A stretch of 64,000 bases of DNA from a virus. The notes under the pieces were generated by a model that saw nothing but the letters and a program-made list of their open reading frames with translations, was not told where the DNA came from and made no database searches. A program made the translations under genes and the position numbers. Position 1 is the first letter of the stretch, and the number at the start of each line of letters is the position of its first letter. Positions 2,893-46,918 of the stretch are shown piece after piece. The DNA lies in IMG/VR virus record IMGVR_UViG_3300021181_000006, positions 96,001 through 160,000 of that record. One strand, 5' to 3'.

Positions 2893-3120
2893 ATGATAAT
2901 CGATCATTCAGAAGCGCATGGTATTTTTGCTCCTCTTACTGAGGAGGAAACCATGAGTATTGCATTAAAAATGACTATGAATATTAAATTAACAAATCGT
3001 GAATCATACCACCAGTATGGTAGATATGATACTCCTGATTTTATATTTATACACATACCAGGACCAGCACTTTGTAATGCGAGTGCTATAGCTAAGGTTC
3101 TTATCGATGACTCAGGATGA
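2893..3120 (+). CDS. small motif-bearing protein (LKMTMNIKL)
   Basis: ORF with recurrent motif. Confidence 0.65.
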   Translation: MIIDHSEAHGIFAPLTEEETMSIALKMTMNIKLTNRESYHQYGRYDTPDFIFIHIPGPALCNASAIAKVLIDDSG

Positions 3121-3352
3121 AGAAGACCATATCTTTGCAGCTATACATCTAAAACTAGAGATGGGTATAGCATTAAGTACTGATGAGATCGTGACTCAAT
3201 TCTGTTCCGTCTATTCCGATAACGGTGAACCTCAACCACTTCAGAATTACCTTTATGTCCAAATACAAGACATTAATCGCAAAAAGCGTGGAAGAACATT
3301 CCTCACCCATGATGATGGCAGCGTCACGTGCTTCTCGTCGCCTCAAAGTTGA
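3107..3352 (+). CDS. small motif-bearing protein (LKLEMGIALSTDE)
   Basis: ORF with recurrent motif. Confidence 0.65.
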   Translation: MTQDEEDHIFAAIHLKLEMGIALSTDEIVTQFCSVYSDNGEPQPLQNYLYVQIQDINRKKRGRTFLTHDDGSVTCFSSPQS

Positions 3353-3452
3353 GATGGGTATACCGCTCACATCGGATGAATATGTTGAATATGTTCAAGA
3401 TCTCAGAAAAAATAATATGTTAACTATTAATAATATTCTGGATGCCATCTAG
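3309..3452 (+). CDS. small motif-bearing protein (LKVEMGIPLTSDE)
   Basis: internal ATG of track ORF 3225..3452. Confidence 0.6.
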   Translation: MMMAASRASRRLKVEMGIPLTSDEYVEYVQDLRKNNMLTINNILDAI

Positions 3453-3479
3453 TATATAAACCTATTTTAGGTTAAAATT

Positions 3480-4058
3480 ATGCCAATCATCGTACCAGTT
3501 ACTCCACGCCTAAAAGCATTGGCCGTGAAGCTAGCTCATATCCGTAATGGTCCAAAAGTAGCGGCTGGACTAAGAAATGGATTTTCCTCGCACTGTTATG
3601 GAGCGCTAGGAGAACTGGTATTTAGTGAGGAATTTGGATGCGATATAGACTGGAAATCATATGGTGGACTAGATGGAGATGGTGGTCATCCTGATTGCCA
3701 TCATAACGGTATTCATAAGTCATTTGAGATTAAGTTTTCTACTCATTTAACTAGTCCTGATCTTAAATTTGATCATGTAAATGAGTTCATCGCAGATTAT
3801 GCTGTTTTATTGTCATTAGGCGATATACGAGCAGACAAAGTATATATTATTGGCTATATAGATCGTTTATCATTTTTAAGTAAAACAAATGGTATTAGGA
3901 CACAGCAAAATTATGGTAATAGGCCACCACGAGAAGTAGTTAAATATGGTAAATTGTTTGATATACAAGATATATTAAATATGATCGGATCACAATGGAT
4001 ATTGAGCTGGAAAAGAAAGATACACCTGCAGCGTTTGATAGTACAGGGAATTCTTTAG
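3480..4058 (+). CDS. putative PD-(D/E)XK-type nuclease
   Basis: GALGE...PD...EIK arrangement typical of the restriction-endonuclease-like fold; AT-rich. Confidence 0.5.
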   Translation: MPIIVPVTPRLKALAVKLAHIRNGPKVAAGLRNGFSSHCYGALGELVFSEEFGCDIDWKSYGGLDGDGGHPDCHHNGIHKSFEIKFSTHLTSPDLKFDHVNEFIADYAVLLSLGDIRADKVYIIGYIDRLSFLSKTNGIRTQQNYGNRPPREVVKYGKLFDIQDILNMIGSQWILSWKRKIHLQRLIVQGIL

Positions 4059-4273
4059 ATGACTATGCATATGGCAGTACTTTTGATCGTGTCGTACATG
4101 ATCTCGCTAAATGCCAAGAATATGAACGAGCTAAACCACTCAAGCACGATCTCGGAATATGGACTATCTATGATGAAATGTGGTTAACCATATATCGTAA
4201 TCGTCAATTAGAGGCCATGGCACACTATAGTCTCTATTCCTTAGCTCAAGAACATGCGTGTTGTGATCCATGA
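3995..4273 (+). CDS. small motif-bearing protein (LKHDLGIW)
   Basis: ORF with recurrent motif. Confidence 0.65.
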   Translation: MDIELEKKDTPAAFDSTGNSLDDYAYGSTFDRVVHDLAKCQEYERAKPLKHDLGIWTIYDEMWLTIYRNRQLEAMAHYSLYSLAQEHACCDP

Positions 4274-4494
4274 CACCAGAAGAAAAACAATTACGTATAG
4301 ATCTTGGGCTTTGGACAGTATGGGATGCTTCCGAGGATAAGGTTACACAAGATATCAATCGTGAGATAGATAAACTATTTTTACATGAACTGGGGACGAT
4401 GATTTATGATCAATCTCTACGAGAGCGAAAAACAGCTCCGCAAAGAACTCGGCCTGTACGGAATAAAAGACATCATAGAGGAAATACTCAATGA
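4270..4494 (+). CDS. small motif-bearing protein (EKQLRIDLGLW)
   Basis: ATGA coupling on both sides. Confidence 0.65.
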   Translation: MTPEEKQLRIDLGLWTVWDASEDKVTQDINREIDKLFLHELGTMIYDQSLRERKTAPQRTRPVRNKRHHRGNTQ

Positions 4495-4642
4495 GCAAGC
4501 AAGTTATCGTTATGCGCAAGGATCTCAACATGCGCAAAGGCAAGCTTGTGGCCCAAGGGTCACACGCAACCATGAAGGATTTACTATCCAAATTTCAATC
4601 CCTAGACCAATCGATCATATCGAGATTAAACTTCTTATTTAG
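4406..4642 (+). CDS. overlapped motif-bearing ORF (EKQLRKELGLY)
   Basis: entirely overlapped by its neighbours in other frames but carries the motif. Confidence 0.4.
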   Translation: MINLYESEKQLRKELGLYGIKDIIEEILNEQASYRYAQGSQHAQRQACGPRVTRNHEGFTIQISIPRPIDHIEIKLLI

Positions 4643-4898
4643 ACCCCGTAGTATCTTCAGCGAAGATGAAAAGAAATACTACTTTGGTACCTTTAAAAAG
4701 ATTTGTGTCTATGTGCAGTCTGAGCAGCAGCTCGATGCTGTACATGAATTGGCTCTTAAGAAGGGACTCGTTAGCCATTTGATCATCGATAGTGGCCTCA
4801 CTGAGTTTAAGAATGTAGCTACAAAGACCTGTTGCTGTATTGGGCCAGATGATGAAGATTTAATCGATTTCATTACTGGTGATCTACCATTGCTATGA
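4491..4898 (+). CDS. pth2: peptidyl-tRNA hydrolase, PTH2 family
   Basis: KQVIVMRKDLNMRKGKLVAQGSHA...KKICV...IIDSGLTEF...TCCCIGP...ITGDLPLL. Confidence 0.93.
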   Translation: MSKQVIVMRKDLNMRKGKLVAQGSHATMKDLLSKFQSLDQSIISRLNFLFRPRSIFSEDEKKYYFGTFKKICVYVQSEQQLDAVHELALKKGLVSHLIIDSGLTEFKNVATKTCCCIGPDDEDLIDFITGDLPLL

Positions 4899-5083
4899 TA
4901 GTACCTGAACACGATAAAACTGGCTTCATATCTTATGTAGCTGAAGGCATTGATGAAGCGCTCTTTCGCAAAGAAATGGGATTGCCGCTCTACATGCAGG
5001 ACGTTGACATTATGAAGCTGGCTGAGGTCTATAAAGTTCGTGTCAATCGATATCGTTTATTACAAGGAAAACCACTCTTATGA
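4895..5083 (+). CDS. small motif-bearing protein (FRKEMGLPL)
   Basis: tandem array member. Confidence 0.65.
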   Translation: MIVPEHDKTGFISYVAEGIDEALFRKEMGLPLYMQDVDIMKLAEVYKVRVNRYRLLQGKPLL

Positions 5084-5268
5084 GAATGTTCGAAGAACTC
5101 AACTGGTCACCAGAAGAGATAGAAATGATTCTCCATAGAGGTGAACTGAAGGCTGATCTCGGTTTAGAGTTATCTCAGATCGAAGCAGGTATGATGAACT
5201 GGAGACATCGCGTGTACTTAGAACAGTTACGTGAAGCTGATAGACAGGCTCCGAAGCATTATGATTGA
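5080..5268 (+). CDS. small motif-bearing protein (LKADLGLEL)
   Basis: tandem array member. Confidence 0.65.
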   Translation: MRMFEELNWSPEEIEMILHRGELKADLGLELSQIEAGMMNWRHRVYLEQLREADRQAPKHYD

Positions 5269-5455
5269 CGAGATCTATGTAAAACAGCTGATGAATATAC
5301 CATTATCATACAATGAAAAAAAAGAGTTATTTGTATATGAGAAGATGCTCCCGCTCAGGCGATATGATCGGCGATATGATCCATTAGGATTCCTGGATGC
5401 AAATCAGGTATCCTATTATGGGTGGCTCTTTGATATGTATAGGAACGAAGCATGA
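5261..5455 (+). CDS. small motif-bearing protein (VKQLMNIPLSYNE)
   Basis: tandem array member; ATG at 5261. Confidence 0.65.
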   Translation: MIDEIYVKQLMNIPLSYNEKKELFVYEKMLPLRRYDRRYDPLGFLDANQVSYYGWLFDMYRNEA

Positions 5456-5715
5456 TAGATCGTATTGAGTTGAAGAGAATGCTTCGGGTACGGCTCGATG
5501 ATGAAGAAGCTTCATTTATTATGAATCAATCGAAGAATATCCTCGGATGGATTAACCAATATAATATGGGCAGCCACATGATAGAAGGCGAAGAATGGGC
5601 AATACATATGATATCACATGTATTTACAGAAAATCTCACATGTCATGTCAGCGCTCCTTGGTGGTATAGAGAAGTTAATAAGGTACTAGGTTATGATCGA
5701 ATCCATAAAACTTAA
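5452..5715 (+). CDS. small motif-bearing protein (LKRMLRVRLDDEE)
   Basis: tandem array member. Confidence 0.65.
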   Translation: MIDRIELKRMLRVRLDDEEASFIMNQSKNILGWINQYNMGSHMIEGEEWAIHMISHVFTENLTCHVSAPWWYREVNKVLGYDRIHKT

Positions 5716-5944
5716 GAAACAGATGGGGATTAAACTCTCCTATGATGAAGCCCATTTTATACTACAAAAGTCTATCGATATACGTAAAGACCTGATTAGT
5801 AGATGCGGTAATGATCTAGTCCATAAAGAAAAAATTATGGGTATATATATTAATCATATGATGGATGTATTTCCAATGCGTGACGTAGGCCAAGCTCCTG
5901 TGACTCAGTGGATGTATAGAGTTCTAGATAGACTTGGTATATGA
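5693..5944 (+). CDS. small motif-bearing protein (LKKQMGIKLSYDE)
   Basis: tandem array member. Confidence 0.65.
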   Translation: MIESIKLKKQMGIKLSYDEAHFILQKSIDIRKDLISRCGNDLVHKEKIMGIYINHMMDVFPMRDVGQAPVTQWMYRVLDRLGI

Positions 5945-5956
5945 ACTGTAAACGAA

Positions 5957-6163
5957 GTGATGGAAATAAGAATGGAAGAAAAACGTGTGGGACAAAATAT
6001 ATACGAAGAGTCTATTAGACTCAAACAAATCATGAATATACCACTGGAAGCTGATGAGGTACTCCATATGTGTTATCGTGGTCTCGGATCGAAGCCATTA
6101 ACATCAGAATCTAGGCGCTCCCTGATGAACAATGTGAAAAAGTATGGACATAAATACCATTAA
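5957..6163 (+). CDS. small motif-bearing protein (LKQIMNIPLEADE)
   Basis: tandem array member. Confidence 0.65.
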   Translation: MMEIRMEEKRVGQNIYEESIRLKQIMNIPLEADEVLHMCYRGLGSKPLTSESRRSLMNNVKKYGHKYH

Positions 6164-6350
6164 CATGAAACGTCAGTTACATATTGATCTTGATATCAAT
6201 GAAACCATTTGTCTTATGCAGTCTATCAACACTGATCCGCGCATCATAGCATTTTTAGAAAGAGCCCGTGACAAATACTCAAAAACAGAGCCTAGCGATC
6301 AAGAAGCTCATGAATATCCCAGTCCATCTCCTGGATATACTGGAAGCTGA
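6144..6350 (+). CDS. small motif-bearing protein (MKRQLHIDLDINE)
   Basis: tandem array member. Confidence 0.6.
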   Translation: MDINTINMKRQLHIDLDINETICLMQSINTDPRIIAFLERARDKYSKTEPSDQEAHEYPSPSPGYTGS

Positions 6351-6474
6351 TGATACTATTGAGAAAATTATAGCAGAAGCAGATAGACATGGAATCGAAT
6401 GCCGAAGGCGTGTACTTACACCTACCATCCATACAGATGAAGGAGCATCTAGGCATTCCTCTCACTCTGGATGA
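6268..6474 (+). CDS. small motif-bearing protein (IKKLMNIPV)
   Basis: tandem array member; long overlaps with neighbours. Confidence 0.55.
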   Translation: MTNTQKQSLAIKKLMNIPVHLLDILEADDTIEKIIAEADRHGIECRRRVLTPTIHTDEGASRHSSHSG

Positions 6475-6577
6475 ATGGTCTTTATTAAGGCATAATTCGC
6501 TTGTAAAAGATCTCATCATCAAGTACGCTCCTGATGAGATCTTAAATATTGATGATATATATTGGGGGAATACGTAG
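6389..6577 (+). CDS. small motif-bearing protein (MKEHLGIPLTLDE)
   Basis: tandem array member. Confidence 0.6.
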   Translation: MESNAEGVYLHLPSIQMKEHLGIPLTLDEWSLLRHNSLVKDLIIKYAPDEILNIDDIYWGNT

Positions 6578-6654
6578 TCACCTTTAGCTCAGTTGGTTAG
6601 AGCAATGCCCTGATAAGGCATAGGTCCCTAGTTCGAGTCTAGGAAGGTGAACCA
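6578..6654 (+). tRNA. tRNA-Ile(GAU)
   Basis: tcacctt/aaggtga, loop ctGATaa, CCA. Confidence 0.95.
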
Positions 6655-6657
6655 TAT

Positions 6658-6734
6658 GGGCCTGTAGCTTAATTGGCTAAAGCGTCTGCCTTGCACGCAG
6701 AAGAGTTTCGGTTCGATTCCGAACAGGTCCACCA
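6658..6734 (+). tRNA. tRNA-Ala(UGC)
   Basis: gggcctg/caggtcc with G3.U70, loop ctTGCac, CCA. Confidence 0.95.
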
Positions 6735-6860
6735 TAGAAATGATTTATGCAGTTAATCACAAAACTTGCCTGGAGCCCAACGTCTATAACGTTGAGCGTG
6801 GCAGTTATCTTAGTCATTATCCTCATTAAGTTAGATCAAAGTAGATAAGACTAAACCCAC

Positions 6861-7145
6861 TCAAGGAGTGGGTTTAGTCTTTATAAAGGCGATTAACTCG
6901 TCTATCTTTTTATTTAGCTTAACGTATTCTTCAGAATGCTCATTCTCTATCGATTCGATAGCGGTCTGAGTATTCCCTAATGCAAGTTTAAAGCGTTCAT
7001 TCTCTTCACTAATCTCATCGCCACGTTTAATAATTGCGTCATTAAGCTTCTTTATTTTCTTCAGGTCGCTTTGAGCGGCATGCAGAGAATCAACCAGCTC
7101 CTTTTTGGAGACAGACGGTTTACGTTTGGACTTAGCTTTGACCAT
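6861..7145 (-). CDS. coiled-coil hypothetical protein
   Basis: GGAGGG SD before MVKAKSK; heptad-like K/E-rich sequence. Confidence 0.75.
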   Translation of the reverse strand: MVKAKSKRKPSVSKKELVDSLHAAQSDLKKIKKLNDAIIKRGDEISEENERFKLALGNTQTAIESIENEHSEEYVKLNKKIDELIAFIKTKPTP

Positions 7146-8179
7146 TATTCCCTCCAGCTGACCCACTTCACTTTCTCAGAGACTGACTGTTGCGACTCAA
7201 GTTTAATGGGCATCCAGTAATTAATGCCGATCTCACGATGCGTCGTCCACAGTGCCTGCTGAGGAAGCTCGAAGTCAAAGTTGTTATCAGCAGCATACTC
7301 ATCATAGCCCTTAATGGAACCATTAACTATGATGCCTTTAAATTGCGCTAATTGATGCCAATGGCCCATTAACATGAAATCATAGCTTTGGTTGACAGCC
7401 GTCTGACGCTTACGCTTCTTGAAATCACCAGTCATGAGAGGTGATAGTAAGCCAGCGATACCTCCACCTCCACGGAACTGATTGCCATGGGTCAGCAGGT
7501 ACCGCGTACCATAGATATTATACTGACAGTCGGTTGACTCGCTGACCTTGAAGACCACGCGCTTGTCTCCTTCGTAGATAGTCTCCAACATGGTATAGAT
7601 AAGCCAGTCATAGTTCTTGAAAACGTAGTTTTTCGACTCGGGTTTAAATGTAGTACGACCATGGTTACCAACGACACATGGTATAAAGAGTCTAGGAAAG
7701 TGCTTCAGGAGTTCATCGATAGCCCACTTGATCTTCCCTACCAGTTCCTTGCACGACTTCAGAGCCGGGTCAGTATTGGTGGCGGTGAGTTCATGGTGGA
7801 TCTCTCCAGAGATCATGTCGCCACCAAGAGCGAGCACGAGGCCATCATACTTCGGGTTCACCATATGCTTGGTCAGCATGAGAATCGTCTTCTCAACGAG
7901 ACGCTGCAGACGGCGGTTAAAAATTTCTTTGTTGAAGGCATTCACATGCCCGATAGCGGTTGGATTTACGACTTCAGAGTAATGCCAATCTGACCAAAAA
8001 GCTGTAGGAATCCCTGGTGAATTGATGTTACTAGGGGTCTTGGTAGTCCACTCAGGTGTCACGATATTGGCCGATGATAGGCCGAAGATTTTCTCACGGA
8101 TATAGTCAGTCTCTAGGTTATTCTCTTTCGCATCTTTCAGTTCGGATTTCAATGCCTTGACCTGTTCTTTAAGATCCAT
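7145..8179 (-). CDS. calcineurin-like metallophosphoesterase
   Basis: SDWH...GGDM...GNHG...THG...GHWH motifs; AAGGA SD before MDLKEQ. Confidence 0.88.
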   Translation of the reverse strand: MDLKEQVKALKSELKDAKENNLETDYIREKIFGLSSANIVTPEWTTKTPSNINSPGIPTAFWSDWHYSEVVNPTAIGHVNAFNKEIFNRRLQRLVEKTILMLTKHMVNPKYDGLVLALGGDMISGEIHHELTATNTDPALKSCKELVGKIKWAIDELLKHFPRLFIPCVVGNHGRTTFKPESKNYVFKNYDWLIYTMLETIYEGDKRVVFKVSESTDCQYNIYGTRYLLTHGNQFRGGGGIAGLLSPLMTGDFKKRKRQTAVNQSYDFMLMGHWHQLAQFKGIIVNGSIKGYDEYAADNNFDFELPQQALWTTHREIGINYWMPIKLESQQSVSEKVKWVSWRE

Positions 8180-8288
8180 CTTGCGTATCCTTTTTTCTTG
8201 GGTATGAGTGGGGCAATGCCACGCCACTCGATTATCCCAAAGGATACTGCCCAGAGTGGTGGTCTGCAAGTAGAATCTCGATATACAT

Positions 8289-8365
8289 GCCCGGCTAGCT
8301 CAATTGGCTAGAGCGCTTGCTTTACATGCAAGAGGTTTCAGGATCGTCCCCTGAGCTGGGTACCA
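8289..8365 (+). tRNA. tRNA-Val(UAC), A54/U58 variant
   Basis: gcccggc/gctgggt, loop ttTACat, T-loop atcgtcc, CCA. Confidence 0.9.
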
Positions 8366-8407
8366 TTTTCGGTATAAGATCAGTACACCAAACCAAGGAA
8401 ACATCCC

Positions 8408-8824
8408 ATGAGCGCTGATAATACCGTTGCTGTTTTTTCTACACCAGATGGCAAATCCTATGTCATCGAAGTACAGTGTATTGAGAGTCGGTTCTTACTC
8501 GAAACAGATCAGCTCGATCCTCTCTGGCATGTTGACATGCTGTCGAAGGCCGAGGTCTATACTTCTGAAGATGCGGCAATATGTGCTGCATTCGCACAAG
8601 CTGAGGATCACTATGTTGAGTACGGAGTATGTCGCGTGAAACTACCTCACACTCTCGCAGAATTCATCGAACAGATCGAACCAGTCTATCACAAGCTCCT
8701 GTTAGGAGTGATAGACATCAATGGAACCAAGACTAATACTGCTAAACGTAGGAAGTCGATCTACTTAGAAAACATTCTAAGAAGCTTGACAAGCCTTCAA
8801 GAGCAGTTATTATTGAAATCATGA
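8408..8824 (+). CDS. hypothetical protein
   Basis: aagga SD, 138 aa ORF. Confidence 0.75.
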   Translation: MSADNTVAVFSTPDGKSYVIEVQCIESRFLLETDQLDPLWHVDMLSKAEVYTSEDAAICAAFAQAEDHYVEYGVCRVKLPHTLAEFIEQIEPVYHKLLLGVIDINGTKTNTAKRRKSIYLENILRSLTSLQEQLLLKS

Positions 8825-8903
8825 AATGTATATCGTTCCATCAGACGTATCAAACCACATCAGGTAGTGCCTGAGGTTTCTATACTCTTTTGGTGAGTAC
8901 ATG

Positions 8904-8935
8904 AACCCTGGCCCGCAAAGCCAGGGTTTTCTTTT
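8904..8935 (+). terminator. intrinsic terminator
   Basis: aaccctggc-ccgcaaa-gccagggtt followed by a T-rich tail. Confidence 0.75.
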
Positions 8936-9020
8936 ATATTTTTTATACACGTAAGGTTAAGGCCCGATACTGTCGGGAGATAGCGGCAACGAAGGTTGGG
9001 GTTGGCCGCATGGGGAATCG

Positions 9021-9476
9021 ATGAAAACATCACATGATGAGTTTTATGTACAAATTATAACTGATAAGTACGCTGGGAATTTTGAACGGGAGATGTGCGC
9101 TTTCATTACTGGTCAGTATGGTGATTGTGGAGTTGGAGAAGAAGAGGCTCAGCTCGTACCGAGTCAGATACAGAGCTTATTTGAAGGAGCCATCGATCAT
9201 AAATCAGATGAAAGTGGGTGTGCAAGGCCATGTGAAGTAGACTACGGCGAACATAATGCATTTAAGATATTTTTCTTGAAAACCCCAACTCAACAGATGA
9301 TGGATATCATCTGTGAGCGTGCTGAAAGATTTTGTATGTCACGACAGAGCGCAGAACTTCGTGAAATTCTTGGTTTACCTAGTGTAAAAAGTTGTCCTAC
9401 TGTAATTAAGGCTATTACTATTTTCCATCAAAAAACTATCATTACAACGGTGATGGTGCTTGCCGAATCAGAATAA
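9021..9476 (+). CDS. hypothetical protein
   Basis: 151 aa ORF, YAGNFEREMCAFITG. Confidence 0.75.
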   Translation: MKTSHDEFYVQIITDKYAGNFEREMCAFITGQYGDCGVGEEEAQLVPSQIQSLFEGAIDHKSDESGCARPCEVDYGEHNAFKIFFLKTPTQQMMDIICERAERFCMSRQSAELREILGLPSVKSCPTVIKAITIFHQKTIITTVMVLAESE

Positions 9477-11642: not shown

Positions 11643-12032
11643 ATGTCATCATTCATTAAAATCGGCTCATGTCGATATTTAGTTATTTTTCATTATCCAG
11701 CTATTAGTAACGATGTTGAGCCTACCTTCTCTGTCCCAGTCTATGACAGTCATTCAGAAAAATTAATCATAGATGCCGCTCAGGACCATTTCCGACATCA
11801 GAGACTCTTTAAAGTTAATCTTGATACCGAATCTCATTACCTCAATATGTCACATGTTGAGAGGATATCGACACAAACACAATATTGGGTTCCTGTTGAG
11901 CTTGATCCAAAATATGTGACTTTTCATCGTTTACGCTGGCAAGTTATTGGATCCTATAGATCTATCACCGAGTATCTGAAGCCTATCGAAGAAGAAGTCT
12001 TTAAATACAATGAACTTGGATTATCTCAATGA
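11643..12032 (+). CDS. hypothetical protein
   Basis: aagga SD; loosely similar to the next ORF. Confidence 0.7.
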   Translation: MSSFIKIGSCRYLVIFHYPAISNDVEPTFSVPVYDSHSEKLIIDAAQDHFRHQRLFKVNLDTESHYLNMSHVERISTQTQYWVPVELDPKYVTFHRLRWQVIGSYRSITEYLKPIEEEVFKYNELGLSQ

Positions 12033-12493
12033 CCAGTAAATATATCGTCGAAGGCATTCCATGTCTGACGCTCAGATACACATTAAATATTACTGAAAAA
12101 CAGGATAATATCGGCAGCGGACCATCAATAGCCATATCTCTGAGCGATAAAAAAGAAATCAAGGCAAAAGCTGATTGTATTATCGCTGCTATTGATACAG
12201 AACTAAAGATGGTTCAAATTATTGATGATCTTTGGCTTGATCCATTCTGTATTAAAATGATACGTATTACCGAAGAAATCTGGTTGCCGCAGGAACAGGT
12301 TTCCTATTGGGACTTTAACCGAGGTTATTGGTTTTCTAAGATGAGTCACAGTGTTAATGAGGATATTCTCGATGCAGAGTACACCAAATGGCAGTTATTA
12401 TCTGCTGAAAACGATAGCTCTGATAAAAAAATCGGTCTGATGGGAACAGACCAAGCTGCTGGTACACGTTTCGCAGGAACATTACGCGTATGA
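12029..12493 (+). CDS. hypothetical protein
   Basis: ATGA coupled. Confidence 0.7.
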   Translation: MTSKYIVEGIPCLTLRYTLNITEKQDNIGSGPSIAISLSDKKEIKAKADCIIAAIDTELKMVQIIDDLWLDPFCIKMIRITEEIWLPQEQVSYWDFNRGYWFSKMSHSVNEDILDAEYTKWQLLSAENDSSDKKIGLMGTDQAAGTRFAGTLRV

Positions 12494-13026
12494 AAATCTT
12501 ACTCGATATGGATGGAGTCCTTGCTGACTTCGAAAACAAAGTATATGATCTCTTTGGCCATCCAAGAGAAAAATTTGATGGTAATAATATGTGTGATATT
12601 GCTCAGTCCTGCGGTGTGAGCAATGAAGCATTCGATACGGCTATGGCAGTAGAAGGATTCTTTTTGAGTATCGAACCGTTGCCGTGGTGCTTCAATCTCG
12701 TAGAGATTTGCGAGAAGCGTGTTGGTCCAGAAAACGTAGCTATCCTGACCAAGCCTTTTAGTGGACAATGTGCTAAAGAGAAGGTCGAATGGGTAGCAAA
12801 GTATCTCCCAAGTTACGCGAAGCGATTACTGATTGGTAAGGCTAAGCATTTCTGTGCCTCACCTGAATCAATCCTGATTGATGATACCTGGAAGAATCTT
12901 GAATCATTCTTGGAACATGGCGGTCAAGCTATTCTTTTCCCAAACCTCTATAATATCCATAGGACCTATTTAACGGATCCTATAAAATTTGTAGAAAGAT
13001 CACTTGATACGCTTATGGCTGGATGA
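12490..13026 (+). CDS. HAD-superfamily 5'(3')-deoxyribonucleotidase (NT5C-like)
   Basis: ILLDMDGVLADF...ILTKP...EKVEWV...ILIDD. Confidence 0.88.
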   Translation: MKILLDMDGVLADFENKVYDLFGHPREKFDGNNMCDIAQSCGVSNEAFDTAMAVEGFFLSIEPLPWCFNLVEICEKRVGPENVAILTKPFSGQCAKEKVEWVAKYLPSYAKRLLIGKAKHFCASPESILIDDTWKNLESFLEHGGQAILFPNLYNIHRTYLTDPIKFVERSLDTLMAG

Positions 13027-13357
13027 CAAACGACCAATGCCATGGAATTATAACTATTGGGCGAAGACATCTTCTGATGCGATAAGTGTTATCGCCGGTG
13101 GTCAAGTGGAGGCAATATCACTTGACCACGATCTTGGAGACAAGACGATAACTGGTGATGGCTATGAGGTTGCCAGTTATATCGAAAAGTGTGCCTTTCT
13201 TGAATTGATTCCACGCATACAATGGATATGTCATAGCGCTAATCCAGTTGGCGTACAACGTATGGTTGCAGCACTGAAGAATGCTGATACATTTTGGAGC
13301 GAACATGAACGAAAAAACGGTCTTTGTCTTGTGGTTAAAAATAGCCCAGCTTCCTGA
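13004..13357 (+). CDS. cyclic-phosphate-processing receiver-like domain protein
   Basis: LWLDDKRP...ISLDHDLG...GY.V..YIE...HSANPVGVQRM. Confidence 0.75.
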   Translation: MIRLWLDDKRPMPWNYNYWAKTSSDAISVIAGGQVEAISLDHDLGDKTITGDGYEVASYIEKCAFLELIPRIQWICHSANPVGVQRMVAALKNADTFWSEHERKNGLCLVVKNSPAS

Positions 13358-28481: not shown

Positions 28482-28495
28482 CAAGGATTCTTCTT

Positions 28496-28759: not shown

Positions 28760-28769
28760 TCTATACACG

Positions 28770-28790
28770 AAAGTAGGCTCGGCCTACTTT
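28770..28790. terminator. hairpin/terminator
   Basis: aaagtaggc-tcg-gcctacttt. Confidence 0.6.
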
Positions 28791-28804
28791 ATTAGCTAGG
28801 ATAT

Positions 28805-35154: not shown

Positions 35155-35162
35155 GGTGACAT

Positions 35163-35438: not shown

Positions 35439-35448
35439 AGAAATACCA

Positions 35449-39614: not shown

Positions 39615-39640
39615 TATAATCAACCATCCTAGGAAAATAT

Positions 39641-40225
39641 ATGGCCCAATACATTAAAAATCATCCTCCCGGTGCGGCAGATAATGCGAAGCTTGGCTTC
39701 GTTGCTGGCGACCAGTGGATGGATACATCAGTAACTCCTGCTGATCTGTATCAGCTGAGTAATACTTCACAGAATGCGGCCTCATGGCGCAAAGATTCCT
39801 TTTCTGATAATCTGATCGTTGCCACAGCTGATTCAGCGGTAGTAGGTACTTCAGCTCCAGTGGCTGATGCCATCCTTGTGCTGAATGCTCCTGCTAGTAA
39901 GCATGTTGATATTCAGATTCTGGCATGGTTTAAGGGTTCTGCTGCAGGAAACGTCCTCTTGAACTTTGGCCTGCCTTCAGGCGCTACAGTGCGCTTCAGC
40001 TCAGAGGCAGTTCTGACTGGTAGTACCTATGCTGCTGCACTGTCAACTGGTGGTAATGCGACTCTGACTGTTCCAGCTGCTTCTGCGTATACGCTGTATC
40101 GTATCTTTGCCAGCGTAACGATGTCTACGACATCTGGCACCGTGAGTTTCGAATGGGGTTCTGATGGAAGCTCAGCTACCATTACTCGTGGTGCTGGTTC
40201 GCGTATGACTTACGATATCGCCTAA
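39641..40225 (+). CDS. virion appendage protein, paralog 3 (shares N module only)
   Basis: MAQYIKNHPPG...GFVAGDQW.D.SV.PAD.Y.L.N.S...A.WRKDSFSD. Confidence 0.65.
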   Translation: MAQYIKNHPPGAADNAKLGFVAGDQWMDTSVTPADLYQLSNTSQNAASWRKDSFSDNLIVATADSAVVGTSAPVADAILVLNAPASKHVDIQILAWFKGSAAGNVLLNFGLPSGATVRFSSEAVLTGSTYAAALSTGGNATLTVPAASAYTLYRIFASVTMSTTSGTVSFEWGSDGSSATITRGAGSRMTYDIA

Positions 40226-40280: not shown

Positions 40281-40300
40281 TCGTATCATAATGGAATTAT

Positions 40301-40546: not shown

Positions 40547-40578
40547 CGTATCATTGCGCTCCTCAGCAGGAGCGAATT

Positions 40579-41255: not shown

Positions 41256-41457
41256 GATGATCCAAGATGCTCCAGCATCATGGATCATCTCAGACGCGTT
41301 AATCGAACTTTATGGATTCCCATCACTCGCTAGATGGGGTATTCATACGATAGCCGATCTCAAAAAATATCACCAACATGAGTTGAAAACATTAACTGGC
41401 ATGCCAAAGCAGACCTATCAACAGATCATTGTAGGACTCAAAAGACTCTATGGATGA
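41239..41457 (+). CDS. stand-alone RNA polymerase alpha-CTD-like protein
   Basis: LARWGIHTIADLKKYHQHELKTLTGMPKQTYQQI resembles the alpha-CTD pattern I.YIGDLV......LL..PNLGKKSLTEI. Confidence 0.55.
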   Translation: MLNLHEMIQDAPASWIISDALIELYGFPSLARWGIHTIADLKKYHQHELKTLTGMPKQTYQQIIVGLKRLYG

Positions 41458-41965
41458 GCTACATGTAGCGATTGAAAGCAGCTTTACTATTCCGTCATAT
41501 ATGCGCCAATTGATGGTACAGTATGCTGATGAAATTTTATATAAAGATAACTGGTATTATCTCAAATTCATGAATGCGAGTGTCTATCCAGTAGATGTAA
41601 CGATTATGGAATTTATTAAGATACATAATTATTCATACCAGCTCAAAGCCATACGCGTGAAGCGTACTTATAATAATGTCAATAATACTACGATGACTAT
41701 TGATGAAATAGGTCCATATGGTAGTTTTCCAGTGCCACTGACAGTAAATATGCCGAGTATACAGATGGATGGTGCGAGGTATGATCTTATGACAGGCTCA
41801 TTAGCATCAGAGACCAAAGAACTGATCCATATGAAAGAGAAAATGAATATACCTTTAAAAGATGACGAATATCTTTCATGCCGTATCATGCGAATACAAT
41901 CCATGAAAAATGGATCCTATACTCATTCAGAATCTCCTTGTTATTTCGATTTTATTAACCCATAA
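41450..41965 (+). CDS. hypothetical protein (MKEKMNIPLKDDE motif)
   Basis: 171 aa ORF. Confidence 0.7.
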   Translation: MDELHVAIESSFTIPSYMRQLMVQYADEILYKDNWYYLKFMNASVYPVDVTIMEFIKIHNYSYQLKAIRVKRTYNNVNNTTMTIDEIGPYGSFPVPLTVNMPSIQMDGARYDLMTGSLASETKELIHMKEKMNIPLKDDEYLSCRIMRIQSMKNGSYTHSESPCYFDFINP

Positions 41966-42137: not shown

Positions 42138-42689
42138 ATGTTAAACAATGTAGATATTAATGACTGGATTGAACAGAATGCCTATAAGCAAGAGCACTCT
42201 CTCTCTAGTAATAGTAATGTAGGTGCTCTTAGCTCGTACCAAGTGACTCATACTTGGAGTACTCAGAATAATCCTAATCTTCTTCAGGGTCCGCAACAGC
42301 AGCTCATGACTCTTTTGGGTCAGCCATGGGGTCAGCCAGGACTCGGATTGCCGTATGGTGGAGTATACCCAAGTGGAGTATATCCAACTACTAATTTCCC
42401 AGTTACTACTCAGGAGCATCGTGATCAGTCTCAGGATGAATTCAAAGAGCCTTTAGAAGCTTTCTATCAAGAATCCATCGATGCTATCTTCAAACTTCAG
42501 GATCTTCTGACCAAGATGGAAGATGAGTTACAACTCCATGCAGTCATGAGAACCATACCGAAGTTCGATCTCTTTATTCGTATTGAAGCTATTAAAGCCA
42601 TGATTGAAGATAGGCGCGAGCAGCTCCTATTACATTATAACTCTCAGTTAATCGCCGCTAAAGAATTCTACGAAGGAAAAATTAAGTGA
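42138..42689 (+). CDS. hypothetical protein, Q/P/G low-complexity then coiled coil
   Basis: agga SD. Confidence 0.75.
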
Positions 42690-43525
42690 AGGCGTATAAA
42701 GATCTTTTACAACACATTATTACTCACGGAACCCCATCTGATGATCGTACTGGAACCGGTACGATCTCGGTGTTTGGGTACCAGAATCGCTATAATCTCG
42801 CTGATGGTTTCCCGTTACTCACAACAAAAAAAGTACCGTTTAGACTGGTGATTTCAGAGTTACTCTGGTTCTTGAGTGGTAATACTGACGCTCAATCTCT
42901 TCAAGAACAAGATAATCATATATGGGATGAATGGGCTACTAAAGAACAGTGCGCTAAATTTGGTAGGGAAGCAGGAGATTTAGGCCCTATCTATGGACAC
43001 CAATGGCGTAACTTTGCACAAACCTATGACGAGGAAGGTGTAGATCAGATACAATGGCTCATTCATGAGATTCATAAGAATCCTAATAGCCGTCGTCTTA
43101 TTGTGACGGGATGGAATCCCAAGGAACAAGATCAAGTGGCTCTTCCTCCATGCCATACCATGTTCCAGTTTTATGTTCGTAACGGCAAAATCAGTTGTCA
43201 GCTCTATCAACGTTCTGCAGATAGCTTCTTAGGAGTACCGTTTAATATCGCTAGTTACGCTCTCCTCACGCACATGATCGCTCATGTCTGTAACCTCGAA
43301 GTTGGTGAATTCATCCATAGCTTTGGAGATCTTCACATCTACAATAACCATAGAACACAGGTTGATCTGCTTTTAAGCAGAGAGCCGATGAAGTTACCGA
43401 CTATTGTGCTGAATCATGCTCTCAAAGGCAGCGGATTCGATGGTCTTATGCGATTTAAACCAGAGGATGTGATTCTATGCAACTATCTCAGCCATCCAGC
43501 CATCAAAGCGCCGGTATCAGTATAG
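42686..43525 (+). CDS. thyA: thymidylate synthase
   Basis: [69 protein letters not shown]. Confidence 0.98.
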
Positions 43526-44049
43526 GTAGTAGATTTTTTCTTGATACAAATACTGCACTTGTGGATGATATTTTAGAGTACATTCTAGAAGCCGGTGAAG
43601 AAAACTATCAAGAATTTATGCTGAGTCAGTATAAATCACAACATACTGATATAGTATTACTCATAGAAGAGCATCACTTCTTTAATAATTGTCACCCATA
43701 TCAATCAGCTTTACTGTTACGCGCACAACGTGATCAAGAATATTGTCGCGGTCATAAAAAATTACATATCCACATTCACGATGATAAAGATGAGATATGT
43801 ACTACTCTCAGAAGAAAACCATTAGTAACTTTATTTCCAGCATTCATAGAAATGGTTAAAAGTAATATTTCGCTCAAAAAGACTCTTGGCTTAGATGATA
43901 CTATTAAACTCATACATCGTTTTGAGTATGTGAAGTTTGCAGCCATCGCAGATACCTGTGGAGAATGCTATATCATGTTTAATGCTAATTGCGAACATCC
44001 ATGCAAGGATACTGAGATTATCTATATCAGAGATATATGTCAAATATGA
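43477..44049 (+). CDS. hypothetical protein, paralog of 44037
   Basis: ILEYIL...LIEEHH...FAAIADT.G..YI.F. Confidence 0.7.
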
Positions 44050-44594
44050 TCTCAATAGATTGCTCTCTCGATGCTAAAAGCGATCTTTGCACAGAAATAT
44101 TAGACCACGTCATTGATACTGAACGTCTCAGCTACATAAAATATTTGCATGAAGAACTCCATGTGGAGCCTCAATATGCTGATGATCTCGTCTATCTTGT
44201 AGAAAATCATCATCTTGAAAAGATACGGCATATCTACTTAACGGCATGGCTATGTAAGGCGATGCATCAGCAAGTATTTACTTTAGAAGCTGACTTTAGC
44301 ATCGTCATATGGAATAGCCCAGGTGGTTATGTTCAGGTGAGCGTGAATGACAAAAAGTTCAGGGATTCTCTCTTTATCTTTCTTCGATATATGAAAGAAC
44401 AGATTCAGGTGAAGTATGAGATGCGTATTATGGATACCGTGTCAATAACTATGCATGAACCAATGAGCCAGATCTATTTCGCCGCTATTGTCAATACGTC
44501 TGGTAGAGGGTATATCTTCTTTAGTGGAAGAGTATATACCGCGCAAAGAGACACCCAAGTACTTTATATAGAGAATCTATGCTCACTGGTATAG
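44037..44594 (+). CDS. hypothetical protein, paralog of 43477
   Basis: ILDHVI...LVENHH...FAAIVNT.G..YI.F. Confidence 0.7.
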   Translation: MSNMISIDCSLDAKSDLCTEILDHVIDTERLSYIKYLHEELHVEPQYADDLVYLVENHHLEKIRHIYLTAWLCKAMHQQVFTLEADFSIVIWNSPGGYVQVSVNDKKFRDSLFIFLRYMKEQIQVKYEMRIMDTVSITMHEPMSQIYFAAIVNTSGRGYIFFSGRVYTAQRDTQVLYIENLCSLV

Positions 44595-45058
44595 TAACTA
44601 TATCACAGGATGGCGTGATCGGACACCATGGTAAAATACCATGGCATATACCAGAAGATTTACAATTTTTTAAAGAGACTACCTACGGTTCCGCAGTGAT
44701 TATGGGTCGTAAGACTTACGAATCACTGCGGCATCCATTGGATTATCGTCTGAATGTAGTCCTCTCAAAAGAGGGATCAATTACTGGAGTAGTAACACGT
44801 ATTACAAAGCCAGAAGAAGCAAAGCCCATCATTGACCAAATGAAGTCATTTGTCATTGGTGGGACTGCTGTCTATACCGAGTTTTCTCGTCAGATTACTG
44901 ACTGGATTATTACCAGAGTACCCACTGAGTGTGGATTATCGGATACCTACTTCCCAGAAGTGCTCCTCGATCATTTTTCTTTAGCTCATACTCACGACAT
45001 CCCATGTAAAAATGGCATGACGCTCACGGTTCAACATATGGTTCGGGTGGAAGAATGA
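44579..45058 (+). CDS. folA: dihydrofolate reductase
   Basis: GVIG..GKIPWHIPEDLQFFK..T...VIMGRKTYES...NVVLS...IGG..VY...DTYFP. Confidence 0.96.
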   Translation: MLTGIVTISQDGVIGHHGKIPWHIPEDLQFFKETTYGSAVIMGRKTYESLRHPLDYRLNVVLSKEGSITGVVTRITKPEEAKPIIDQMKSFVIGGTAVYTEFSRQITDWIITRVPTECGLSDTYFPEVLLDHFSLAHTHDIPCKNGMTLTVQHMVRVEE

Positions 45059-45354
45059 TACCTCTCTCAAAGCGTTTTGAGATACTACAACGTACTGGTA
45101 AATATAGCGAGGCTAAGGAGTTAGTAAAAAATTCCCGTTGGTATCAGTGCGGTAAGCTCTACTACCGTCCATTTGATGATATGACGATTGATAAGGGAAG
45201 AGTTTTTAAGCAGATACAGGATATCTCGCAGTGTACAGAGGTGCCATTCGAGCAGATTGACCAACTAGATTCTCTTGCAGGGATCGCACTCGCAGCTACA
45301 GTGACGCATGTCAGTCAACCTCAATTACCTAGAAAACGCTGCTGTGGTGCATGA
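45055..45354 (+). CDS. hypothetical protein
   Basis: ATGA coupled. Confidence 0.7.
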   Translation: MIPLSKRFEILQRTGKYSEAKELVKNSRWYQCGKLYYRPFDDMTIDKGRVFKQIQDISQCTEVPFEQIDQLDSLAGIALAATVTHVSQPQLPRKRCCGA

Positions 45355-45863
45355 ATAAGCTAGAAAAGCATTTATGGCAGATAGTGAGCAGTTCTATTCT
45401 TCAGGACCAGCGTTATAAGTTTCTGAAGATTATTGAGCGCCAATACTCTACATTACTTGGCTTTAGCGAAAACACGATATTTGTTTACCTATTAAAAAAT
45501 AAAATCATCTCTCTCGATCATTTAGAAATTGAATCAGCTTTCGTCAACCCGAATAACGTATCTAAGAATATCTTGATACAATATTTTAGCTTCTCATTAC
45601 TGCAATCACGAGCCTTTAAGTTTCTCTGGAAAGGGAAACTAGAAAACCTCGTAGCGCGTACTGTAGCTAATGAGACGTCGGTGAAGAAGATGCTTGGTAT
45701 GAAAGAGTGGCGTCTCCACTTCACGAGAAGCAATGAATGCTATGCGTTACATACGTCTGGCGATGGGTTTATCATCACTAAAAATGGTTTATTCGCTTTT
45801 TTCTGGGACTTCGAGAAGAACAAATTTAAAGAACCACATCCCGCAGTTGCCAGTACCACATGA
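45351..45863 (+). CDS. hypothetical protein (VKKMLGM motif)
   Basis: ATGA coupled. Confidence 0.7.
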   Translation: MNKLEKHLWQIVSSSILQDQRYKFLKIIERQYSTLLGFSENTIFVYLLKNKIISLDHLEIESAFVNPNNVSKNILIQYFSFSLLQSRAFKFLWKGKLENLVARTVANETSVKKMLGMKEWRLHFTRSNECYALHTSGDGFIITKNGLFAFFWDFEKNKFKEPHPAVASTT

Positions 45864-45879
45864 GTTACTAAAGTGACGC

Positions 45880-46119
45880 ATGCTCTACTTATATGAATAC
45901 GAAATTCTTGGTGGTTTCTTTGCTCCCAGTAAGTTATTTGTCTCTCATAGAATCCTGACTGAAGCTGAAGTAGTTCAGGGCATCAATCGTGTTGCTTCCA
46001 GCCATAAAGTGGTTATGACTAGCGTTCCATTCGAGTTTGTACTCAATGGCCGTAAAGTCAGAATCACCTGTAAGGAAGTACCAAGTGCCGACATTAACAG
46101 TAGGAAACGCCAACATTGA
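45880..46119 (+). CDS. hypothetical protein
   Basis: 79 aa ORF. Confidence 0.55.
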   Translation: MLYLYEYEILGGFFAPSKLFVSHRILTEAEVVQGINRVASSHKVVMTSVPFEFVLNGRKVRITCKEVPSADINSRKRQH

Positions 46120-46918
46120 GTTAGAGGATTGGCAGTATCAACGAGTCATTGCTCATCAGCTCAGCCCATATCTCATATTTTTAATTCAGTATAAACTCTC
46201 TCAAGTTGATGATACTGAACTATTAGCTGCATTACTTTATGCTGAGTATCGCGGTCCAGCCATGCTCTCGATTGCGGCTGAGATGCATTGGCTCAGACTC
46301 CATATGCTCGTAGGTCTTCCTTTGGAAGACGCTATCAAATACGCAGGTTCTTTAGCTCCTACTGCGGCTGAGCTTGAAGATTATAAGATTAAACTGGTTC
46401 ATAAGTTGGACTTCGATGCCAGCCGTACTTGGATGGGTATCACTGTCTTAGATGAAATAGGTCCAAATGGTCTCTATTTATATACGCTCTTTGCTATGGG
46501 AGCCCCAAGAGTCTGTGTAAAAGATATAAGAGATCCGTTGTTCGCGGCCATACATTTAAATCCAAGACATATTTCGACTGGTTTCGATGACCTTGATATC
46601 GTAAAGCTGACTGGGAATATTGCTTTTACTTACTACATACCCGATCATCTGTATCAGAAGATATTCCGTATGCGTAAGTTTTTATTAGCAGAAGCTGGCT
46701 TAGTGAAGCCTCGTGATATTCGTCACTGGCATCCAAAGATTCAATTTGGCTTCACTAAAGTGCAGTTAGATGCGCTGAGACAGCTCAATGATTTCTATCA
46801 GAATGTGCTAGATGATACGAATGATCATTTTATTGTGGACGTACCTGACCACGTAAAGCATGCGAGATGTGTCATGATCGTAGATAAGGATGGCGTCGAG
46901 AGGATTATAACATCCTAG
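46037..46918 (+). CDS. hypothetical protein
   Basis: 293 aa ORF; start uncertain. Confidence 0.75.
   Translation: MYSMAVKSESPVRKYQVPTLTVGNANIELEDWQYQRVIAHQLSPYLIFLIQYKLSQVDDTELLAALLYAEYRGPAMLSIAAEMHWLRLHMLVGLPLEDAIKYAGSLAPTAAELEDYKIKLVHKLDFDASRTWMGITVLDEIGPNGLYLYTLFAMGAPRVCVKDIRDPLFAAIHLNPRHISTGFDDLDIVKLTGNIAFTYYIPDHLYQKIFRMRKFLLAEAGLVKPRDIRHWHPKIQFGFTKVQLDALRQLNDFYQNVLDDTNDHFIVDVPDHVKHARCVMIVDKDGVERIITS

Follow-up and report, generated by a model that had tools for sequence, protein, structure and literature searches.

A tandem array of very small genes in an uncultured 184-kb phage encodes a family of proteins united by a conserved peptide of about 17 residues, and on balance we think it probable that this array is an accordion of micro-genes particular to this lineage, with a single new α-hairpin module as its building block. 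The array occupies positions 2893-6577 of the window, that is, of the whole 64,000-nucleotide stretch analysed, between tRNA-Gly and tRNA-Ile, and its core consists of about 13-16 tiny duplicated genes, interrupted by two unrelated genes, one of which is a PTH2 hydrolase. The family, F1, comprises 12 small ORFs of this single array together with the C-terminal part of the protein encoded at 41450. The array and its borders are made up as follows.

2816-2889 (genome 98816-98889), + strand: tRNA-Gly(UCC), left border of the array (ARAGORN)
2893-3120, + strand: F1 micro-gene, motif LKMTMNIKLT centred on codon 2980; recovered at rank 1 by the family HMM built without it (E 0.0034)
3107-3352, + strand: F1 micro-gene, full motif centred at 3164 (motif match, family HMM)
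3225-3452, + strand: F1 micro-gene probably starting at 3309, centre of the full motif at 3357, overlapping the preceding ORF (motif match, family HMM)
3995-4642, + strand: three peripheral array ORFs (3995-4273, 4270-4494 and 4406-4642), degenerate motif [KR]xxLG[IL] followed by W/Y..D
4895-5268, + strand: two F1 micro-genes (4895-5083 and 5080-5268), weaker motif copies, weak in leave-one-out searches (E 3-6)
5231-5944, + strand: three full-length paralogs (5261-5455, 5452-5715 and 5693-5944); BLAST, alignment, model of 5693, leave-one-out E 1e-8 to 0.014
5957-6577, + strand: four F1 micro-genes (5957-6163, 6144-6350, 6268-6474 and 6389-6577); alignment, DNA repeat, leave-one-out
6578-6734, + strand: tRNA-Ile and tRNA-Ala, right border of the array (ARAGORN), followed by a terminator-like hairpin at 6847-6903 (terminator scan)

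Motif centres in the array lie 133-241 nt apart, most neighbours being separated by 133-195 nt, and some of the ORFs (4406, and 6144, 6268 and 6389) overlap one another by 83-152 nt. The ORF at 4406 overlaps its neighbours on both sides; it was not collected by the F1 HMM, nor were those at 3995 and 4270, which resemble each other at E 0.049. A public gene call, P0006 (47 aa), begins at 3309. The products of 5261, 5452 and 5693 each begin MI[DE]xI and carry the motif at residues 5-19, with Arg in place of the motif Gly in 5452 and a weak second copy of the motif at residue 46 of 5693. The ORFs at 6144, 6268 and 6389 stand in successive +1 frames with overlaps of 83 and 86 nt, leaving as their overlap-free part only the ∼40 codons that hold the module, which in 6268 has a 6-residue insertion in its turn.

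The first-pass annotation had described a single motif, hydrophobic-[KRE]-x-x-[ML]-[GN]-[IL]-x-hydrophobic, often followed by [ST]-x-[DN]-E, in more than 30 small proteins. The recurrence itself is far above chance: the core [KRE]xx[ML][GN][IL], a pattern defined after the fact, gives 31 matches in 28 of the 97 + strand accessory ORFs, against 4.2 ± 1.9 expected from residue shuffles. The count of more than 30 was nevertheless too high, the ORFs at 5452, 6144, 19087, 24520, 26298, 29077, 29522, 44037, 45351 and 46037 either failing to match the pattern or matching it loosely, and the full motif with its [ST]-x-[DN]-E half is confined to the 12 array ORFs and 41450. In the remaining 181 ORFs of the genome the core is at chance level (11 matches, 13.0 expected). 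The 9-residue pattern gives 17 matches in + strand frames between 2965 and 41831, with one more at 53490 in a stop-broken frame, and none in the − strand frames of the window; within the ORF set it is found 14 times against 0.6 expected. Enrichment persists when each paralog family is counted once. It is thus real, and specific to the accessory gene block.

Could the motif be generic helix C-cap frequency combined with over-counting, so that this phage is not special? It is indeed made of common capping rules, and several of the listed ORFs match it loosely, but this reading, the first part of which the first-pass annotation had itself named beforehand as grounds for abandoning its proposal, is already contradicted and very improbable. 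The core is found 36 times in the small ORFs of this phage, against 7.0 expected, whereas the small ORFs of the control phages show no excess (5 against 7.9 for Vibrio phage D181, 4 against 7.0 for Salmonella phage Arash and 8 against 7.7 for T4), and it lies at or below chance in the 181 other ORFs as well.

The conserved residues are conserved as peptide. Synonymous codons vary at every conserved motif residue, and therefore selection acts on the peptide; DNA repeats within the array are limited to the motif, with 63-86% identity. A nucleic-acid or translation signal read in frame (a repeat, a promoter, or a ribosome-binding site with an internal start) might be suspected from the ATG at the [ML] position in 22 of 35 motif sites and from the purine-rich codons of K, R and E. 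At the other 13 sites, however, this position is CTC, CTT, CTA or TTA, unable to start translation, and a Shine-Dalgarno-like sequence is present at 4 of 35 sites, compared with 8% of random positions and 26% of ORF starts. With synonymous positions varying freely and the residues upstream of the M conserved as peptide, a signal of this kind is already contradicted and can be given next to no credence.

The F1 members are mutually detectable by profile beyond the bare motif. Starting from 3 members, iterative HMM searching enlarges the family to 10. When each of 13 members is left out in turn, 10 are recovered at rank 1 and another one at rank 2 (E between 1e-8 and 0.09), aligned over 20-55 residues. 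Single proteins can also hold the module more than once: it occurs twice in 5693 (spacing 38 residues) and twice in P0009 (spacing 51 residues). This within-protein spacing equals the 133-195 nt of most array neighbours, as would be expected if one or a few longer repeat proteins, with 40-50-residue repeats, had been frameshifted into small ORFs, the products being in part artefacts of ORF calling; the successive +1 frames of 6144, 6268 and 6389, with an A5 run at the first junction, point the same way. We regard such decay as improbable, however, since peptide-level selection has preserved the motif in every unit although the codons differ, most units possess an ATG and a stop of their own and overlap by 4 nt or a short stretch, as is usual in phage operons, and gene calls publicly available for a second, nearly identical contig match the same small proteins.

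In an AlphaFold2 model of the 5693 product, the single confident model, which rests on an 11-row paralog alignment, helices at residues 2-11 and 17-38 flank a turn at residues 12-16. Confidence is highest over the motif (pLDDT 89-91), whereas the variable tail reaches only 50-70. In this predicted helix-turn-helix geometry the motif forms the end of helix 1, a five-residue turn and the start of helix 2, and does not fall in a disordered segment; compared with the classical HTH pattern the turn has two extra residues, and helix 2 is 22 residues in length. Fold searches with this all-α model returned generic helical bundles only (Z at most 6.2). From its sequence, the motif can be read as a Gly C-cap with an S/T-x-x-E N-cap after it, which we take to be a Schellman-type C-cap and a capping box with a hydrophobic staple. 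Its conserved charges, K at −4 and D/E at +6/+7, could also form an interaction surface, an observation that counts against the reading we prefer.

A helix cap within one shared fold was the other outcome on which the proposal of a portable tag had been staked, and it is what the 5693 model gives for the core of F1. To this extent the finding comes down to paralogy of the usual kind, with a small folded module in place of a disordered linear tag. Beyond the array, the motif or its first half recurs at the following places.

41813-41920, + strand: complete module, residues 123-157 of the 171-residue protein encoded at 41450-41965; 47.3 bits to the 36-position profile
18770-20188, + strand: F2, five tandem paralogs of 87-107 aa, half-motif LTDIERxL[GN][IL]x[YF]P at residues 20-45, then predicted strands
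26608-28101, + strand: F3, four tandem paralogs of 118-132 aa, C-terminal end [LT]-K/T-I-K-[AS]-[ED]-M-N-I-T-stop
29959-30162, + strand: small Cys-rich protein starting MSIKRDMNIPL, half-motif at the extreme N-terminus
13625-14002, + strand: singleton, LLKKEMNI at residue 43; second-best non-member of the F1 HMM
9021-9476, + strand: singleton, half-motif at residue 114 of 151 (motif match)
12029-12493, + strand: singleton, half-motif at residue 16 of 154 (motif match)
20301-20693, + strand: singleton, half-motif at residue 37 of 130 (motif match)
28098-29080, + strand: two singletons (28098-28481 and 28805-29080), half-motif near the N-terminus (motif match)
43477-44594, + strand: F4 paralog pair, 43477 with the half-motif at residue 134 and 44037 with a degenerate copy (motif match, BLAST, HMM)

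The copy in the 41450 protein lies 35 kb from the array and is 55% identical to 5957 over 20 residues (BLAST); no homologue of this protein was found elsewhere. The first half of the motif alone recurs in F2, F3 and about eight singletons. In each of F1, F2 and F3 the motif is the most conserved window: in F2 the half-motif scores 0.57 over nine columns against a family mean of 0.18, and in F3, where every stop codon overlaps the start of the next gene (ATGA), the C-terminal nine columns score 0.81 against 0.30. Two features of these families count against the reading preferred here: a mere helix cap does not explain why the half-motif is the most conserved block of F2 and F3, and in F3 it lies two residues from the chain end, a place at which a structural cap would hardly have to be conserved.

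Homology of F1 to F2, F3, F4 or the singletons was not detected. An hhalign comparison of F2 with F1 gave no alignment and iterative HMM searches stay within each of the four families, bearing out the earlier description of flanks unrelated between clusters; only the 29959 protein (ORF 29902), the repeated best non-member match of the F1 HMM, and 13625 come near F1 (E 0.004-0.1). A single paralogous family spanning all the motif ORFs finds no support in these searches.

These scattered copies bear on the earlier proposal of a portable docking or address handle, in which the motif or hairpin is bound by one common phage or host partner and has been spread by module shuffling. As had been described, it is not tied to one position: its location ranges between residue 8 and the final 7 residues of the chain, being N-terminal in most of F1 and in the 29959 protein, at 123-157 of the 171 residues of 41450, and at the very end of the chain in F3. 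It is the best-conserved window of three families without detectable kinship, its excess is absent from three other large phages, and with F1-F3 excluded the pattern φ[KRE]xx[ML][GN][IL] is present in 8 further independent units against 1.1 expected, a value reached by 0 of 500 shuffles. On the other side, no common partner, compartment or cleavage site for the motif was identified; the F1 motif is predicted to be a well-folded corner whose sequence textbook capping rules fully explain; and the context after the motif Gly varies by family, with a helix in F1, predicted strands in F2 (in a low-confidence model, pLDDT 51) and the chain end in F3. The pattern is moreover post hoc, and in the singletons every component is only ∼1.5-fold enriched, with [KRE] nearly as common at −3 and −6 as at −4. 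The tag proposal fails for the paralogous F1 core, while the 41450 copy, the conserved half-motif of F2 and F3 and the within-protein repeats still lend a handle some support, and overall we consider a handle possible but unlikely. A role of the hairpin, or of its first half alone, as a handle serving one hub throughout the phage, whether a host machine or a phage system, is distinctly doubtful. If true, the hub would act on the micro-protein library and also, through their tails, on several larger accessory proteins, and this would be phage effector addressing with a logic comparable to RxLR/PEXEL or T4 capsid targeting, differing in the peptide and the position rule.

In the accordion of micro-genes that we favour, the 12 array ORFs would encode a two-helix module of about 35-40 residues, with three more carrying a degenerate copy. 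The motif would be the corner of this module, with helix 1 ending in φ-K-x-x-M-G (Gly C-cap), I-P-L bridging the turn, and [ST]-x-D-E-φ opening helix 2 as a capping box with hydrophobic staple. Duplication and fast divergence would have erased all but the corner and the surrounding hydrophobic pattern, and one module copy would have become fused to the C-terminus of the unrelated 41450 protein. The looser half-motif of the other families may be the same helix end, retained since far more ancient duplications, or a helix end reached by convergence. We infer that the array may be an early-expressed library of host-directed micro-proteins, with the hairpin as its functional handle.

How does this module compare with known proteins? 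An exhaustive search of 1.84 billion representative proteins with the module profile gave 10 hits in all and no counterpart beyond one orphan from a metagenome, one unusual repeat protein and a look-alike of EF-hand linkers; 30 members scanned against Pfam, and comparisons with PHROG, gave no hits. Orphans aside, no outside sequence matches better than the helix-linker-helix joint of EF-hand pairs: in an EFCAB13 protein from a marsupial (P0011), the profile picks up recurring joints of the type KDMGITLTDDEY that Pfam reads as EF-hand pairs. EF-hand linkers share with the phage module the pattern φ-x-x-[ML]-G-φ-x-L-[ST]-x-x-E-φ, implying that the motif offers a generally usable way to form a tight corner between two helices. 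The phage proteins have neither an EF-hand match nor a calcium loop (Pfam), and EF-hand identity is rejected for F1, the inter-helix joint alone being similar; the resemblance is one of structural grammar, not ancestry. UBA/CUE helices, with their M-G-F loop, were also rejected, with no Pfam hit and no UBA or CUE protein among the 10 profile-search hits. The N-terminal signature of SUKH/SMI1_KNR4 domains, φ-x-x-φ-E-x-x-L-G-φ-x-L-P, has a spacing similar to the F2 block I-E-R-x-L-G-L-x-Y-P and the F1 motif, but most of the phage proteins are too short for the domain, and PF09346 gave 0 matches at E up to 10 in six frames of the genome, 6 control genomes being positive.

In T4, the capsid targeting sequence of the internal proteins (IPI-III, Alt) always lies at the N-terminus and terminates in a cleavage site for the prohead protease. 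It may be compared with the phage motif as a short common peptide on diverse small proteins, in a plastic region beside tRNA genes. The analogy drawn in the first-pass annotation fails on position and protease-site linkage, however: the phage motif lies at varying positions, is predicted to be folded, and shows no association with Lys-x-Ala, the proposed code of this phage's head protease (5 of 35 sites against a background of 8%). The RxLR motif of oomycetes and the PEXEL motif of Plasmodium likewise recur across many dissimilar small proteins, and for RxLR common folds were later found behind the dissimilar sequences. Those motifs sit within disordered leaders behind a signal peptide and have a role in export, whereas the phage motif is a predicted folded corner with no export context. 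Gene accordions and small early protein families of large phages and poxviruses also show tandem duplication, fast divergence and an absence of homologues outside the lineage, and likewise lie among tRNA and nucleotide-metabolism genes. The phage array differs from these in that a block of ∼17 residues survives in at least 13 copies, and in that the first half of this block is also the best-kept part of two families that profiles do not link.

The peptide motif that recurs in this phage is some 17 residues long, with a first half, hydrophobic-[KRE]-x-x-[ML]-[GN]-[IL], followed by [ST]-x-[DN]-E. Its recurrence in small accessory proteins, as claimed in the first-pass annotation, is borne out: the core [KRE]xx[ML][GN][IL] occurs 31 times, in 28 of the 97 accessory ORFs (ORF sets here being our own crude, length-greedy calls), against 4.2 ± 1.9 in residue shuffles, and the nine-residue pattern originally described is found 14 times in these ORFs where 0.6 would be expected. 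When all frames are read, this pattern gives 17 matches on the + strand between 2965 and 41831, an extra one at 53490 in a frame interrupted by stop codons, and none in the - strand frames of the window; genome-wide, its open-frame matches occur only in the accessory block. Could such abundance simply reflect how often helices are capped in this way? The other 181 ORFs of the genome (45,174 residues) contain 11 cores against 13.0 expected, and the ORF sets of phages T4, D181 and Arash, called by the same procedure, are at or below expectation overall. For ORFs of up to 200 residues the observed and expected numbers are 8 and 7.7 (T4), 5 and 7.9 (D181) and 4 and 7.0 (Arash), compared with 36 and 7.0 in the studied phage. 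With the rest of the genome and the control phages at chance, a generic helix-cap frequency is contradicted as the source of the counts, and the enrichment is specific.

A profile of 20-28 residues spanning the full motif collects 12 micro-ORFs of a tandem array at 2893-6577 and the protein encoded at 41450 (ORFs are named by their start in the window), together termed family F1, and nothing further above decoy level. An iterative HMM seeded with the full-length paralogs 5261, 5452 and 5693 gathers 10 members, and in leave-one-out HMM runs 10 of 13 omitted F1 members come back as the top hit, aligned over 20-55 residues, implying that the shared unit is a module of about 35-40 residues rather than nine. 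BLAST and HMM comparisons define three other paralog families.

Paralog families carrying the first half of the motif
18770-20188, + strand: F2, five genes
26608-28101, + strand: F3, four genes
43477 and 44037, + strand: F4, two genes

None of these is linked to F1, or to one another, by BLAST, HMM or profile comparison. They and about eight singletons carry only the half-motif. When families are counted once and F1-F3 are removed, eight independent half-motif units remain against 1.1 expected, a value reached in none of 500 shuffles, although this residual signal needs caution, the pattern having been defined after inspection of the same sequences. Among the singletons [ML][GN][IL] is only 1.6-fold enriched, with K, R or E nearly as frequent at positions -3 and -6 as at -4. 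The Lys position of the motif is Arg or Glu in many copies.

The sole confident structural model among the motif-bearing proteins is that of 5693, obtained with AlphaFold2 from an alignment of 11 paralogs. It is all-helical (mean pLDDT 74), with a helix at residues 2-11, a turn at 12-16 (G-I-K-L-S) and a second helix at 17-38; pLDDT is 86-91 over the first 30 residues and 50-70 in the variable C-terminal half. We take the F1 motif to be textbook helix grammar, in which a Gly C-cap and the hydrophobic residue after it close helix 1, and L-[ST]-x-D-E-hydrophobic presumably serves as a capping box with hydrophobic staple that opens helix 2. The model for F2 is poor (pLDDT 51); in it the half-motif lies where a helix ends and strands follow, not a second helix as in F1, implying that what comes after the Gly differs between families. 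Complex prediction for two copies of 5693 scored 0.01, a value obtained without control runs that speaks neither for nor against pairing.

An exhaustive search of 1.84 billion representative proteins with the module profile returned ten, seven of which belong to the phage itself or, in near-identical form, to a sister contig of 183,593 bp. The others include P0009, a 93-residue metagenomic orphan (JGI metagenome, 13,012-bp contig) with two motif copies 51 residues apart, which is the module's one clear relative elsewhere; P0010, an odd triple repeat; and a marsupial EF-hand protein, in which the profile aligns to the joint that recurs between EF-hand helices and the EF-hand pairs are confirmed by Pfam. 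Tight helix-helix corners are thus repeatedly solved by this motif, and the module itself is all but confined to this phage lineage. Foldseek with the F1 model against the PDB gave no hits at E up to 0.001, and a wide VIA-align search found only generic helical proteins (best Z 6.2). Homologue searches with 5693, 41450 and P0009 each retrieved the query alone, scans of viral and metagenome contigs found no relatives, and in the ESM Atlas neither 19643 nor 26964 had a usable look-alike. Scanned against Pfam and PHROG, 30 motif-bearing proteins yielded no meaningful match, and neither Pfam nor the exhaustive profile search gave a UBA-like one. A SUKH identity was dropped when the family profile found nothing in the genome.

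Is the motif, then, a portable handle placed on unrelated proteins, as the first-pass annotation proposed? Conservation across families is consistent with this, since the half-motif is the top conserved nine-column window in F1, F2 and F3 (mean pairwise identity 0.36 vs 0.08, 0.57 vs 0.18 and 0.81 vs 0.30, respectively). A complete module is also found at residues 123-157 of the 171-residue 41450 protein, otherwise unrelated and 35 kb from the array, and the small Cys-rich protein 29959, which has the half-motif at its very start, recurs as the top match of the F1 profile outside the family. The strongest individual argument that the motif is recognised comes from the F3 tail: the half-motif forms the last ten residues of these proteins, where a structural cap, two residues short of the end of the chain, would require little conservation. 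Since the codons of the tail vary, overlap with the start of the next gene does not account for it. Against a handle, nothing points to a partner, and the F1 core consists of paralogs sharing a folded module. The cross-family conservation and the 41450 fusion speak for it, the array ORFs of F1 do not fit a tag on unrelated proteins, and overall we consider a handle rather unlikely.

Over 26608-28481, each of the four F3 genes ends ACATGA, its stop overlapping the next start, and the protein that follows opens with a T-[SP]-D-[ED]-H stretch resembling the half that the F3 motif lacks. The gene junction would seem to divide the motif in two, with a spacing that is not constant. Upstream of the window, small + strand ORFs at genome positions 74033-74450 and 82168-82926 (locus L029) carry motif-like strings (KDLNIPLYCD, LKFQMNLNTDEIHL and LKNILGLPTES), and two pairs of small Cys-rich paralogs lie at genome 74.0-74.8 kb.

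The motif is conserved at the level of the peptide. Codons vary among copies at every conserved residue (five Leu, three Ile, three Pro and four Gly codons), and DNA repeats in the array, of 63-86% identity, do not extend past the motif itself, so that a DNA-level element is ruled out. A disguised translation start is likewise excluded, because 13 of 35 motif sites use Leu codons incapable of initiation and a Shine-Dalgarno-like sequence precedes only 4 of 35, compared with 8% of random positions and 26% of ORF starts; a nucleic-acid signal behind the motif is thus contradicted. Three small ORFs do begin like the motif: that at 1461-1742, 3' of tRNA-Pro, which must start at the first ATG past the tRNA and whose protein therefore opens exactly at the motif Met (M-N-I-P-L), and those at 18066 (MNIS) and 16736 (MGII).

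Motif centres in the array lie at 2980, 3164, 3357, 4154, 4306, 4451, 4979, 5161, 5294, 5485, 5726 (with an additional weak copy at about 5840), 6035, 6180, 6313 and 6452, neighbours being mostly 133-195 nt apart; within single proteins, two modules are separated by 38 residues (5693) or by the 51 of P0009. The array has tRNA-Gly as its left border and tRNA-Ile, tRNA-Ala and a strong terminator hairpin as its right one, and is interrupted by two genes, a 192-residue ORF and a PTH2-type peptidyl-tRNA hydrolase (4491-4898, Pfam E 2e-26) that sits mid-array near tRNA genes. A promoter-like TTGACA-16-CATGAT is present at 2777-2804; in a scan of 1-9000, sigma-70-type sites were no commoner than in shuffles. 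Several units run into their successor, in a different frame, for 83-152 nt. From ORF 6144 to 6268 and on to 6389 (6144-6577), the frame shifts by +1 each time; the overlaps measure 83 and 86 nt, an A5 run lies at the first junction (6281-6285), and just the 40 or so codons encoding the module are free of overlap. ORF 4406 overlaps both 4270, whose N-terminal EKQLRxxLGL it repeats, and PTH2, over the first 50 codons of the latter. Both places may reflect true overlaps, frameshifted relics or slippage. The frame pattern matches what a broken repeat-protein gene would leave, but each unit is under peptide-level selection, and we regard such an origin as improbable. The array resembles an accordion of micro-genes, with selection on the module and a tail that is free.

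The source is a single virus contig of 184,466 bp, rated about 94% complete, whose only detectable relatives among deposited phages are very distant (34-39% identity of a structural protein to those of Vibrio phage D181 and Salmonella phage Arash). Positions 1-47000 form a nearly unbroken + strand block of about 100 mostly small ORFs, with late genes on the - strand from about 47000 onward. The block encodes 13 tRNAs, PTH2, a 5'-nucleotidase, a cREC receiver domain, HNH and PD-(D/E)XK nucleases, and two ORFs that we read as thyA and folA.

ORFs resembling nucleotide-metabolism genes thyA and folA, read from sequence
42686-43525, + strand: thyA-like ORF, 279 aa
44579-45058, + strand: folA-like ORF, 159 aa

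ARAGORN places the tRNA genes over 52-23306 (Asn, Pro, Trp, Gly, Ile, Ala, Val, Met, Phe, Gln, His, Glu and Ser) and finds no tmRNA in the entire genome. The cREC_REC cyclic-phosphate-processing domain (13004-13357, E 3e-21) overlaps the end of the 5'-deoxynucleotidase (NT5C) gene at 12490-13026. At 34123-40225, proteins of 343, 426 and 194 aa, flanking one of 961 aa, share near-identical N-terminal stretches of 57-75 residues (63% and 49% identity) and diverge afterwards, a pattern like that of exchangeable tail-fibre or receptor-binding proteins built on one shared adaptor. A tandem family without the motif (ORFs 141, 461 and 768, at 141-1088, each about 106-118 aa) shows that duplication is general in the accessory block.

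We lean towards the view that the motif is the structural corner of a new, lineage-specific alpha-hairpin module. A single hairpin of about 40 residues would have been duplicated repeatedly into a tandem array of micro-genes, one copy being fused to the 41450 protein outside it, and the half-motif of the other families may be an older or convergent form of the same helix end. The likeness first drawn to the capsid targeting of T4 internal proteins breaks down both on position and on the proposed K-x-A protease code, for which no association with motif sites was found. The corner is the only part of the hairpin kept fixed, which marks it as the site for mutation or for use as bait. If it is also a handle on unrelated proteins, one experiment could show what some thirty proteins share; if not, it warns that canonical helix-capping residues can mimic a linear tag. 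Large phages carry hundreds of tiny genes without known relatives, whose origin and action are a standing puzzle, and the array would show such genes arising from one 40-residue hairpin.
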